Of a DNA stretch of 4,958 nt, positions 1-4,958 are shown in pieces (the first letter of the stretch is position 1; the number at the start of each line of letters is the position of its first letter). A program made the position numbers and the translations under genes. The stretch lies in the IMG/VR virus record IMGVR_UViG_2695420644_000001; one strand, written 5' to 3'. The stretch is from a virus. Lineage: Duplodnaviria; Heunggongvirae; Uroviricota; Caudoviricetes. The notes below the pieces were generated by a model, which had not been told where the DNA came from, did no database searches, and worked only from the letters and a program-made list of their open reading frames with translations.

Positions 1-211
1 GGGCGGTTGCCCGGCATCCAACACCATTCATGGCCATATCAATGATTTTCTGGTGTGTACCGGGTTGAGAAGCGGTGTAAGTGAACTGCAGTTGCCATGT
101 TTTACGGCAGTGAGAGCAGAGATAGCGCTGATGTCCGGCAGTACTTTTACCGTTACGCACCACGCCTTCAGTAGCTGAGCAGGAGGGACAACTGATGGAG
201 ATGGAAGCCAC
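1..211 (-). CDS. insA: IS1 InsA, N-terminal about 70 codons; 3' end cut by window edge
   Basis: GTG start at 211 (minus strand). Translation [70 protein letters not shown] matches InsA with a few substitutions. The track ORF 28-240 is a different frame. Confidence 0.85.
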
Positions 212-243
212 GGGAGCACCTCAAAAACACCATGATACACTAA

Positions 244-266
244 ATCAGTAAGTTGGCACCATTACC
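244..266 (-). repeat. IS1 terminal inverted repeat (about 23 bp)
   Basis: Reverse complement of 244-266 is ggtaatggtgccaacttactgat, against canonical IS1 ggtgatgctgccaacttactgat. Confidence 0.8.
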
Positions 267-268
267 AG

Positions 269-445
269 GATGCGGAGCATGGTGAGGCTGGTCACTTCAC
301 TTCCATCGAGCAAGAATATCCCCAGATACTCAACAGAGCGCGAGCAATCCTCGCCCGAGAAACGGCACATGTAAAACTTCAGCCGTGGCAGGATGATAAG
401 TGGAGTCGAGTATTGCCGCATTTACCTCAGAATCTGTTTCAATAA
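269..445 (+). pseudogene. Possible 3' remnant (58 codons) of an unidentified gene truncated by the IS1 insertion
   Basis: Frame is open from the IS1 boundary to TAA at 443-445 (…NRARAILARETAHVKLQPWQDDKWSRVLPHLPQNLFQ), followed 19 bp later by a hairpin. No start codon context and no family recognised. Confidence 0.25.
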
Positions 446-463
446 AGGCGCTAGTTAGTAAGG

Positions 464-489
464 CTTCCGTCATTCTGCGATGACGGAAG
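464..489 (+). terminator. Perfect 10-bp inverted repeat hairpin (cttccgtcat / atgacggaag, 6-nt loop); possible terminator of the upstream remnant
   Basis: Stem seen directly in sequence. No clear U-tract follows, so terminator function is uncertain. Confidence 0.25.
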
Positions 490-499
490 TGCGGGCTGC

Positions 500-619
500 G
501 TACGGGAGAGCAATTGTATGAATAATATAAATATTCCGCTCACTCCATATAGCGATTTCTGATACAAACTTATCTATTGTGGTAAAATTATAGAAACAAA
601 CTTATAGCGTACTAACCAT
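500..619 (+). promoter_or_regulatory. AT-rich putative promoter/leader region upstream of the HNH-motif gene
   Basis: AT-rich with -35-like hexamers (ttgtat 514-519, ttgtgg 577-582) but no convincing spaced -10 and no Shine-Dalgarno before the ATG at 620. Confidence 0.2.
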
Positions 620-1402
620 ATGGACAATATTAATAAACACGGGCTCTCAAGAAGAATACCTGAGACAATAAAACGTCAGATAAGGCAAAGGTGCGGCTTT
701 GGCTGTGTAATTTGTGGATTTGGATTTTATGATTATGAGCATTTTAAACCTGACTTCGTTGATGCCAAAATACATGATCCGAATGGAATGACACTTCTTT
801 GCTCCCAATGCAATCAAAAAAGAGCTCGTGGTAGACTTTCAGCACAGACAGTGGAAATAGCTGACAGAAATCCCAAGTGCTTACAGGCTGGTTTTGCAAA
901 TGAAATGTTTGATTTTCATAATGAGCCTATAACAGTAAAATTTGCAGGAGTGACGTTTCATAACTGTCAAAATTTGATTGTAGTCAACGAACAACCCATT
1001 CTTTCTGTGAAACCTTCACCCATACCACATGGACCGATGCTTTTATCAGGAATTTTCTGTAATTCTATTGGTAAGGAGACTTTACTGATAGATGAAAATG
1101 AATGGAAAGCTAAATCAGACAATTGGGATGTGGAGTGTACCGGCCCGCGTATAACAATACGACGTGGGCCAGGAGAGTTTGCCCTCGTTCTAAAAATGGA
1201 ACCTCCAACAGGATTGATTGTTGAGCGTCTTGATATGTTGTATGAAGGGGTCAGGATGAAAGGAGATAAAGATCTGCTGGAAGTTTCGATTAATGGAGGT
1301 CCCTTGCACAGATGGCAATCATGCTCAATGTCAAATTGCCATACAGGGCTTGCGATTCAGGGCGGTATTAGAGCTGCTAATGATCCTTTGTATTGCGCCT
1401 AA
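620..1402 (+). CDS. Hypothetical protein with N-terminal HNH (beta-beta-alpha-metal) nuclease motif; C-terminal ~190 aa unrecognised
   Basis: 260-aa ORF. Residues 25-67 read C-x3-C-x2-C … EH-x2-P … DPNG … LLCSQCNQK, fitting the HNH pattern of CxxC, catalytic His, Asn, CxxC-N. By rough count about 40% GC against over 50% in flanking genes. No Shine-Dalgarno. Confidence 0.7.
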   Translation: MDNINKHGLSRRIPETIKRQIRQRCGFGCVICGFGFYDYEHFKPDFVDAKIHDPNGMTLLCSQCNQKRARGRLSAQTVEIADRNPKCLQAGFANEMFDFHNEPITVKFAGVTFHNCQNLIVVNEQPILSVKPSPIPHGPMLLSGIFCNSIGKETLLIDENEWKAKSDNWDVECTGPRITIRRGPGEFALVLKMEPPTGLIVERLDMLYEGVRMKGDKDLLEVSINGGPLHRWQSCSMSNCHTGLAIQGGIRAANDPLYCA

Positions 1403-1443
1403 ATCCACTAAATTGATTTTCAACAATCAACTTGCCATAATTA

Positions 1444-2862: not shown

Positions 2863-2957
2863 TGTTTGAGTTTTATATGGCAGAACTTCTTCGCCACCGC
2901 TGGGGGCATCTGCGCTTATATCGTTTCCCCGGTTCTGTTTTGACCGATTACCGAATC
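2859..2957 (+). CDS. ylcG: ylcG-like small ORF, first 33 codons only; truncated at junction
   Basis: ATGATG at 2859 overlaps the rusA stop (ATGA). [33 protein letters not shown], after which the sequence becomes antisense rlpA. Confidence 0.55.
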
Positions 2958-2958
2958 C

Positions 2959-3024
2959 ATCATCGCTTGTACATGCCGCGAGCATTCCTGCCGCGATGCA
3001 GATCCCGAGCCACTGCTTACGCAT
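2959..3024 (-). CDS. rlpA: rlpA, first 22 codons only (lipoprotein signal peptide with lipobox LAAC); truncated at junction
   Basis: Minus-strand ATG at 3024 with GAGG Shine-Dalgarno, 10 bp after the rodA stop. MRKQWLGICIAAGMLAACTSDD matches the RlpA N-terminus and the known order mrdB-rlpA. Boundary uncertain by about 3 nt. Confidence 0.8.
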
Positions 3025-3034
3025 TGCGCACCTC

Positions 3035-4030
3035 TTACACGCTTTTCGACAACATTTTCCTGTGGGTGTGGATTGACATTACAATCCCGAACCCAGCCAT
3101 CAGCACAATTAGCGCCGATCCTCCATAACTGACCAGTGGGAGCGGAACCCCTACAACCGGCAGAATACCGCTTACCATACCAATATTTACGAAGACATAA
3201 ACGAATAATATCAGCATTAAGCCGCCAGCCATGACGCGACCAAAGGTGGTTTGCGCTCTGGCGGCTATCCACAGCCCGCGCATGATCAGCAGAATGTAGA
3301 GAGCGAGCAGAATCAGAATGCCCACTAATCCCAGCTCTTCCGCCAGTACCGCGAAGATAAAGTCAGTATGGCGTTCGGGGAGAAATTCAAGCTGTGACTG
3401 AGTGCCGTGCAGCCAGCCTTTGCCGCGTAATCCGCCGGAGCCAATAGCAATTTTAGACTGAATAATGTGATAGCCCGCGCCGAGTGGGTCTGATTCCGGG
3501 TCCAGGAGCATCATTACGCGCTGGCGCTGGTAATCATGCATCAGGAAGAACCACAGAATCGGAATGAACGCCGCTACCAGCACTACTGCGACGCCAATCA
3601 GACGCCAGCTAAGGCCAGAGAGGAACAGTACAAACAGACCGGAAAGCGCAACGAGGATTGATGTTCCCAGGTCAGGCTGTGCAGCCACCAGCAGCGTGGG
3701 CATAAATATCAGCACCAGCGCGATGCCAGTGTTCTTCAACGATGGCGGGCAAACGTCGCGGTTGATAAAGCGCGCAACCATCAGTGGTACGGCTATTTTG
3801 GCAATTTCCGACGGCTGAAAACGAACAATACCGAGGTCCAGCCAGCGTTGAGCACCTTTAGAGATGGCACCGAAAGCATCTACCGCCACCAGCAAAATAA
3901 TACAGATGATATAGAGATAGGGGGCCCAGCCTTCATAAACGCGTGGAGGAATTTGCGCCATCACCACCATGATGACCAGACCCATCGCGATTTGGCCGAT
4001 TTTACGCTCCATCATGCCAATATCCTGACC
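3035..4030 (-). CDS. mrdB: RodA (MrdB) SEDS-family peptidoglycan polymerase, residues about 40-370; 5' end missing
   Basis: Translation from [23 protein letters not shown]… to …[14 protein letters not shown] matches E. coli RodA to its C-terminus; stop at 3035-3037. The 83 residues upstream in the track ORF (3035-4279) are antisense proS. Confidence 0.93.
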
Positions 4031-4958
4031 GATGTGGTCTTCTCCGACACCTCTGACTATGCAGCGAACATTGAACTGGCAGAAGCTATCGCGCCGAAAG
4101 AACCGCGCGCTGCTGCTACCCAGGAAATGACGCTGGTTGATACGCCGAACGCGAAAACCATCGCGGAACTGGTTGAACAGTTCAATCTGCCGATTGAGAA
4201 AACGGTTAAGACTCTGCTGGTTAAAGCGGTTGAAGGCAGCAGCTTCCCGCTGGTTGCGCTGCTGGTGCGCGGTGATCACGAGCTGAACGAAGTTAAAGCA
4301 GAAAAACTGCCGCAGGTTGCAAGCCCGCTGACTTTCGCGACTGAAGAAGAAATTCGTGCCGTGGTTAAAGCCGGTCCGGGTTCACTGGGTCCGGTAAACA
4401 TGCCGATTCCGGTGGTGATTGACCGTACCGTTGCGGCGATGAGTGATTTCGCTGCTGGTGCTAACATCGATGGTAAACACTACTTCGGTATCAACTGGGA
4501 TCGCGATGTCGCTACCCCGGAAATTGCTGATATCCGCAACGTGGTGGCGGGCGATCCAAGCCCGGATGGTCAGGGTACGCTGCTGATCAAACGTGGTATC
4601 GAAGTTGGTCACATCTTCCAGCTGGGTACCAAGTACTCCGAAGCACTGAAAGCCTCCGTACAGGGTGAAGATGGCCGTAACCAAATCCTGACGATGGGTT
4701 GCTACGGTATCGGGGTAACGCGTGTAGTAGCTGCGGCGATTGAGCAGAACTACGACGAACGCGGCATCGTATGGCCTGACGCGATCGCACCGTTCCAGGT
4801 GGCGATTCTGCCGATGAACATGCACAAATCCTTCCGCGTACAGGAGCTTGCTGAGAAACTGTACAGCGAACTGCGTGCACAAGGTATCGAAGTGCTGCTG
4901 GATGACCGAAAAGAACGTCCGGGCGTGATGTTTGCCGATATGGAACTGATCGGTATTC
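4031..4958 (+). CDS. proS: Prolyl-tRNA synthetase ProS, internal fragment (about residues 214-522, includes editing domain); truncated at junction and window end
   Basis: Plus-strand translation [42 protein letters not shown]…[17 protein letters not shown]…[21 protein letters not shown] matches E. coli ProS. Confidence 0.93.

Follow-up and report, generated by a model that had tools for sequence, protein, structure and literature searches.

A cargo gene of DLP12-type Escherichia coli prophages that joins an HNH domain to a family-specific β domain is a candidate for a role in defence

A low-GC accessory gene of a DLP12-type Escherichia coli prophage, carried on a stretch of DNA of 4,958 nucleotides catalogued as the genome of a tailed virus (IMG/VR record IMGVR_UViG_2695420644_000001; the whole stretch is called the window below), encodes a protein in which an HNH domain is followed by a β domain peculiar to its own family. 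That family is large and uncharacterised, its two-domain architecture is fixed, and the E. coli gene lies in a cassette whose place is taken in other strains by BstA, SIR2 or HEPN proteins. Judged by sequence and setting, the gene is a reasonable candidate for a defence gene. The explanation that we find best, and put forward as a serious but tentative proposal, is that its product is a stand-alone, single-protein nuclease directed against phages or other mobile elements, with the β domain as sensor or gate.

Results

A low-GC gene in a discrete cassette

Positions 620–1402 of the window (+ strand) hold a genuine open reading frame (ORF) with a product of 260 amino acids, which translation, homologues and predicted structure together define as a two-domain gene, an HNH nuclease joined to a family-specific β domain. 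A preliminary description of this DNA, made from the letters alone, had the coordinates, strand and length right, and translation likewise bears out its numbering of C25, C29, C32, E40, H41, N55, C61, C64 and N65. It had also remarked that the gene is poor in GC relative to its neighbours and had suggested horizontal acquisition. The ORF indeed has a GC content of 0.407 and a GC3 of 0.318, against GC3 values of 0.579 and 0.587 in ybcN and rusA downstream, and acquisition is supported both by this composition and by the discrete nature of the cassette, which 80 of 5,426 complete E. coli genomes (1.5%) carry, between flanks that are common to other strains.

The variable cargo cassette measures 974 bp (439–1412, + strand; GC 0.402) and consists of an AT-rich leader of 181 bp and the ORF; its boundaries, the points at which homology breaks, were placed by pairwise BLAST at 438/439 and 1412/1413, and the sequence from 1413 onwards occurs in about 2,936 of the 5,426 genomes. 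Within the leader, a weak promoter-like site (559–588, + strand), 31 nt ahead of the start codon, combines CTGATA, an 18-nt spacer and TG-TAAAAT; six promoter-like sites were counted where shuffled sequences gave an expectation of 3.3 ± 2.0, a difference that is not significant. Conserved regulatory sequence upstream of the gene was not found: homology to other genera starts at the ATG, and the upstream spacers of homologues are AT-rich and not conserved. Two further features of the leader are possibly due to chance, namely a perfect 10-bp inverted repeat at 463–488 (CTTCCGTCAT, TCTGCG, ATGACGGAAG), just past the P22AR_C stop codon, and a 14-codon ORF at 518–562 (MNNINIPLTPYSDF) that ends 58 nt before the start codon.

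Location between P22AR_C and the nin region

Positions 266–2956 of the window are 99.9% identical to a DLP12-type prophage of non-K-12 E. coli strains such as AW1.7. The ten E. coli places inspected share one gene order, running from ren through emrE, ylcJ, ybcK, P22AR_C, the 260-residue gene and ylcH to ybcN, ninE, ybcO, rusA, ylcG and the gene for the antiterminator Q (quuD in most); in most of the ten, ren is itself preceded by the replication genes O and P. Given this order, the HNH gene is the last cargo before the nin region and not a literal occupant of the ren position, where the preliminary description had put it; that placement does find an echo in Enterobacter, where the homologue follows P directly.

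The left conserved flank is the 3′ remnant of a gene for a P22AR C-terminal domain (266–445, + strand, with homology to about 438), window position 266 corresponding to position 8001 of locus L001, inside a coding sequence (7857–8180) for which Pfam P22_AR_C is recorded. The end of an IS1 element, inserted in reverse orientation and lying outside the finding (1–265, − strand), interrupts this gene and leaves its last 180 nt. Window positions 1–268 match the IS1 transposase regions of loci L002 and L018 at 93%, and a full-window search returned matches to parts of it in thousands of chromosomes and plasmids, the outcome to be expected when an IS element is present; in other strains IS1, IS2, IS3 or IS5 is found at different points elsewhere in the prophage.

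On the right, the conserved flank shared by those 2,936 or so genomes (1413–1594, + strand) forms the leader of the nin region, with a hairpin and a ylcH-like ORF of 33 residues (1497–1598, + strand, an annotated coding sequence), and is followed by the nin-type genes ybcN (NinB/Orf family), ninE, ybcO and rusA (1595–2862, + strand). The hairpin described earlier as tR2-like is real and strong (1443–1475; ΔG −21.4 kcal/mol, z −4.5 against shuffles), but the comparison with a terminator fares less well, as it lacks a U-tract, drew no call in a terminator scan and belongs to the conserved flank rather than to the cassette. The NinB-like gene reported downstream is ybcN (1595–2050), the next sizeable gene. 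Its product matches Pfam NinB only at E 3e-4, below the curated cut-off, but its annotation is that of YbcN, a DNA base-flipping protein of the Orf family (PMC4118853).

Taken as a whole the window is a mosaic, put together from four E. coli segments that are unlinked to one another, with joins at 265/266, 2956/2957 and about 4030–4034: the IS1 end (1–265, − strand), the prophage (266–2956), the 3′ end of rlpA with an mrdB/rodA gene lacking its 5′ end (2957–4034, − strand) and an internal fragment of proS (4030–4958, + strand). In none of the 5,426 complete genomes do we find 80% of the window in one place. Since mrdB and proS are both essential genes and both are truncated here, a viable rearrangement seems a less likely origin than a chimera produced in assembly or cloning. 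An ORF of 414 residues at 3035–4279 (− strand) is an artefact of the mosaic join.

A hypervariable cargo slot

We compared window positions 439–1412 with the corresponding stretch of loci L016–L019 and L101–L105, and find that DLP12-type and related lambdoid prophages have a hypervariable slot for cargo at the junction before ylcH–ybcN. In strain QML220601 (locus L104) the same flanks, 96.5% identical on the left (266–438) and 97.1% on the right, enclose a protein of 309 residues that is recognised by the BstA model of PADLOC (E 3.6e-121); at locus L017 the left flank is weaker (84%, window 266–425). BstA is an experimentally validated abortive-infection protein of prophages (PMC8585504). The same junction upstream of ylcH–ybcN holds a SIR2-family protein (Aga SIR2 / PDC-S65 models) in another strain, a HEPN protein (PDC-M28A) with a partner ORF in a further one, and ybcL with ybcM in K-12 and BL21; elsewhere it holds an α/β hydrolase or pairs of uncharacterised small proteins, or is empty. 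In E. coli the gene thus occupies a site that also takes proven and likely defence genes, with BstA between the same flanks and SIR2 or HEPN at the right-hand junction.

The uncharacterised pairs (L102 3081–3880, − strand; L103 2983–3989, + strand; L017 4060–4458; L019 3565–4008) are themselves candidates for new defence genes. The strain that carries the SIR2 protein, PEC301, keeps 60 bp of the cassette (window 1353–1412, at L019 4501–4560; 91.7% identity), comprising the last 50 nt of the HNH ORF and the next 10 nt, and this retained 3′ end argues that the cassette was replaced by recombination inside the gene.

An HNH domain with a glycine at the structural asparagine

Residues 20–72 (677–835, + strand) form an HNH (ββα-metal) core with a Cys4 zinc ribbon, the zinc site being made up of the two pairs C29-x2-C32 and C61-x2-C64. 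The residues that we assign as catalytic are E40–H41 and N65, an arrangement in which the catalytic His is preceded by an acidic residue and the final metal ligand stands at the start of the helix; C25 and H52 are conserved too. Taken alone, the window protein matches the Pfam HNH model below its cut-off (residues 29–68, E 0.043; 14.4 bits against 21.4), and the signal recurs across the family: 19 of 62 diverse relatives match at E ≤ 0.01, P0159 clears the cut-off at 25.0 bits, P0277 and P0278 have precomputed PF01844 matches, and several PHROG HNH families match weakly. A profile of the family's first 75 residues aligns with the HNH domains of IscB (E 0.0099) and ZRANB3 (E 0.037), setting C29-x2-C32 on the first C-x2-C of the solved domains, E40–H41 on H-H (IscB) or D-H (ZRANB3), G56 on the structural Asn and C61-x2-C64-N65 on C-x2-C-H.

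Thirteen residues are invariant among the 62 sequences (R22, G26, F27, G28, C29, C32, H41, P44, H52, L60, C61, P85 and D170), whereas position 40 is E, H or D in distant members, position 65 is H or N family-wide, with His in distant members, and position 55 varies in the relatives between N, K, M, A, E and D. The HNH motif first recognised from the sequence therefore stands in all but one residue: E40–H41 and N65 align with catalytic positions of IscB and ZRANB3, but N55, taken earlier for the motif Asn, falls at the variable position, and it is invariant Gly56 that aligns with the structural Asn. By profile alignment and among the relatives, that mid-motif Asn is absent from the family. Many HNH variants lack it, so its loss does not exclude membership of the superfamily.

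The N-terminal domain is basic (pI about 8.8–9.2), and the full-length AlphaFold2 model has a pLDDT of 85.8 and a pTM of 0.77; sequence and model are consistent with a real HNH domain. The nearest known group is the zinc-ribbon subtype of the HNH superfamily (PF01844; the HNH domains of IscB/Cas9, ZRANB3, EcoKMcrA and GVE2). Apart from the window protein's individual score below the Pfam cut-off and the replacement of the structural Asn by Gly56, the family differs from PF01844-type domains in having Asn for the last His in its enterobacterial and betaproteobacterial branch, and in the extra conserved residues C25 and H52 and an N-terminal N-x2-G-L-x-R motif.

A β domain confined to the family

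The C-terminal domain, of some 170 residues, is predicted to be an acidic all-β meander, with 17 strands at about residues 90–250 of the model (887–1369, + strand); modelled by itself, the C-terminal part reaches a confident pLDDT of 88.3. Within it D170 never varies and N160 hardly does, while W169 is shared by the closer homologues. The domain has a pI of about 5.5 in the window protein, and across the family a median pI of about 5.3 and a charge of about −5. The preliminary description had failed to recognise it, and so do the databases: the C-terminal part has no family match in Pfam or NCBIfam and no fold match in the PDB or BFVD (Foldseek against BFVD gave nothing below E 0.1), and full-length and C-terminal profiles yielded only noise against PDB sequences. 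Matches there to HIV gp160 (E 0.05) and bluetongue virus VP7 (E about 1) we set aside as such noise. On the evidence of the model, the domain appears to be a new fold.

A profile of the β domain alone retrieves 106 proteins, almost all of them 245–270 residues long with the same HNH in front, and since it draws in almost nothing but HNH-plus-β proteins, we regard the domain as specific to the family and not as a shuffled module. Among the proteins retrieved we saw no combination of the β domain with other effector domains, short C-terminal additions and a few C-terminal-only ORFs apart. In some relatives, P0131, P0140 and P0304 among them, the β domain is followed by such an addition: a SEC-C zinc motif, seen in 5 of the 62 diverse members, or else TPR repeats or a CxxCxxCC domain. 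The proteins made up of the β domain only, a few in number and 152–175 residues long (for example P0299, Burkholderia aenigmatica), may be split genes.

A widespread family that recurs without a conserved partner

A word-indexed search found 307 homologues. Among the 120 matches listed, most have 247–272 residues and are 50–79% identical over at least 86% of the query, a range that sets aside a near-identical E. coli representative, and their sources are Enterobacteriaceae, Burkholderiales, Pseudomonas and Vibrio. An exhaustive profile search extended the family to 2,710 clusters (50% identity) at E ≤ 1e-3, or 836 at E ≤ 1e-30. Taking one genome per species gave 226 loci, distributed over Proteobacteria, Cyanobacteria, Chloroflexota, Planctomycetota, Bacteroidota, Bacillota, Acidobacteriota, Deinococcus, Chlamydiota and one Methanothrix metagenome-assembled genome (MAG). 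The window protein is a full-length member of phrog_6544 in PHROGs v4 (E 3.4e-141; protein residues 1–255, profile 1–248 of 248), a PHROG that carries no functional annotation, and the exact protein, which is found on 985 contigs or more, goes by no other name than "hypothetical protein" or "HNH endonuclease". The gene is accordingly no orphan, as it had at first been called; the suggestion, made at the same time, that it might be an already catalogued prophage hypothetical protein was correct, as phrog_6544 and the UniProt and NCBI entries under those two names attest. Literature searches by accession, PHROG identifier and keyword, together with the DefensePredictor supplements, turned up no publication on the family and none that ties it to defence.

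The gene is found in 1 of 50,697 records of isolated phage genomes and in 7 of 72,556 plasmid records, and its near-absence from isolated phages indicates that it is not a core lytic function. Truncated copies occur, such as a form of 215 residues in Shigella dysenteriae.

Clustering of the five neighbours on either side at 76 species loci revealed no conserved partner gene, with no neighbour family recurring in more than four of the 76. The gene had been described as a single gene and not a demonstrated system, which this survey upholds, and the idea that homologues might keep a conserved partner finds no support in it; on this evidence, the product probably acts alone or with host factors. 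Homologues in four genera occupy moron-like positions in prophages: besides the Enterobacter copy after P, that of Klebsiella lies between replication or methylase genes and DUF1367/YbcO/RusA/Q, that of Pseudomonas is a lone gene of the early-left region on the strand opposite its neighbours, and that of Comamonas adjoins the integrase. In Undibacterium the homologue has HicAB and an IS element beside it. Beyond Enterobacteriaceae, Pseudomonas and Comamonas, housekeeping genes make up most of the neighbours and few are of defence type; a scan of 145 non-enterobacterial neighbours with Pfam and PADLOC, made without a background control, gave as defence-type matches DrmMI / type IIG, HEC-06, PDC-S09, IetA, mad2/8, HEPN_LA2681 and HicB.

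Discussion

What the analysis shows is the ORF, an HNH domain recognisable by fold and motif, an architecture of two domains that is fixed, a locus in cassette form, and the alternation of the gene with BstA at the same site and with SIR2 and HEPN genes at the same right-hand junction; nuclease activity, gating by the β domain and a defence phenotype are what we infer. In the mechanism that we envisage, H41 would act as the general base of the HNH, and E40 and N65 as its metal ligands; the β domain would restrain the HNH from attacking host DNA until the protein encounters an unusual substrate or a cue derived from a phage, whereupon the nuclease would cleave the DNA of the phage, or that of phage and host alike in the manner of abortive infection. 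As the HNH domain is basic and the β domain acidic, a regulatory role suits the latter better than a DNA-binding one, and it is this charge, with the exclusive fusion to HNH, that suggests gating. Several findings count against a role in defence: in PADLOC-DB 2.0.0 nothing matches the window protein significantly (the best is PtuB, E 0.04), the slot also accepts non-defence cargo, namely ybcL/ybcM and the α/β hydrolase, the literature searched connects the family with defence nowhere, the promoter-like signal is not significant, and the mainly housekeeping neighbours beyond Enterobacteriaceae, Pseudomonas and Comamonas do not establish an enrichment in defence islands. A more ambitious version, in which the family is a previously unrecognised and very widespread single-protein immune nuclease whose β domain is a new sensor fold that releases the HNH in response to a phage protein or small molecule, we consider possible but doubtful.

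Several other functions could be served by a small prophage nuclease. Modification-dependent (Type IV-like) restriction, in which the β domain recognises base modification or some unusual structure of the DNA and cutting by the HNH is confined to such DNA, would explain the absence of a methyltransferase or immunity partner. It accords with a stand-alone gene of patchy horizontal spread and without a conserved partner, and with an HNH core structurally close to those of EcoKMcrA, TagI, ScoMcrA and VcaM4I; McrA, moreover, is likewise prophage-borne, being carried by a cryptic lambdoid prophage. We nevertheless judge it unlikely, for a β domain with a family median pI of about 5.3 is acidic, it is unlike SRA, PUA, EVE, YTH, winged-helix and other known readers of modified bases, and the HNH-first order differs from that of McrA, TagI and ScoMcrA; a search of the window protein for a modified-base reader (SRA/PUA, EVE, winged helix or the McrA N-terminal domain) recognised none. 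A phage-intrinsic nuclease of the early lytic phase, processing recombination or replication intermediates or degrading host DNA, would resemble the nuclease genes of the nin region (Orf/NinB, Rap/NinG, RusA) or P1 Ref. The distribution makes this quite improbable: one isolated phage record in 50,697 has the gene, many homologues lie outside any prophage, most DLP12-type prophages dispense with it, and the Pseudomonas copy is transcribed against its neighbours.

The homing endonuclease proposed in the preliminary description, a free-standing selfish enzyme that would cleave related prophages at its cognate site where that is empty, and would spread through the repair that follows, draws on a low-GC single gene with sharp boundaries between conserved flanks in 1.5% of genomes, and on the N-terminal position of the HNH, which enzymes of the I-HmuI type share. 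Yet the site is a general cargo slot, for the same flanks take BstA and the right-hand junction takes the unrelated SIR2, HEPN and ybcLM, and homologues of 50–60% identity stand in wholly different contexts, often non-phage, in many bacterial phyla and one archaeal MAG. Nor does the protein carry the NUMOD, IENR or HTH modules of the I-HmuI type in Pfam; its C-terminal domain is acidic, and its context differs in every genus. We therefore rate homing as very unlikely and, of the three roles first offered, favour defence or exclusion over it. As remote, in our estimation, is a cellular function in DNA metabolism or some other activity unrelated to conflict, or the state of a passenger gene that is decaying and no longer serves a purpose, although most non-enterobacterial neighbours are housekeeping genes and truncated copies such as the 215-residue form of S. 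dysenteriae exist. Conservation over the full length, identities of 50–60% between beta- and gammaproteobacterial members and invariant catalytic residues argue for a function and so against a passenger; patchy distribution and mobile contexts argue against housekeeping.

If the stand-alone defence nuclease is the right reading, a compact system of 260 residues would join the immune repertoire encoded by prophages, bringing with it a new fold, for sensing or regulation, that is tied to an HNH nuclease and to no other effector, and the junction between P22AR_C and ylcH–ybcN would be marked as a cargo hotspot that can be mined as those of P2 and P4 are. If it fails, the gene would be one more conserved hypothetical HNH protein.

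Among known systems, BstA offers a parallel in setting, both being single-gene cargo of the same DLP12-type site between P22AR_C and ylcH–ybcN, and both families occurring in prophages and outside them. The two share no sequence or domain relation, and the window protein gives no BstA match in PADLOC; BstA contains a domain resembling KilA-N but lacks a nuclease motif (PMC8585504). Two defence systems with an HNH component match only weakly. Cap5 of CBASS joins HNH to SAVED, whereas the window protein has no SAVED domain, an all-β meander unlike it and no cyclase nearby, and PtuB, the HNH protein of Septu, differs in that no PtuA ATPase is found near the gene described here. Type IV enzymes of the EcoKMcrA kind resemble it in being prophage-borne and stand-alone, with an HNH catalytic domain and no need of a partner; they differ in that the order of the domains is reversed, and that the other domain of the window protein is unrelated to theirs and acidic.
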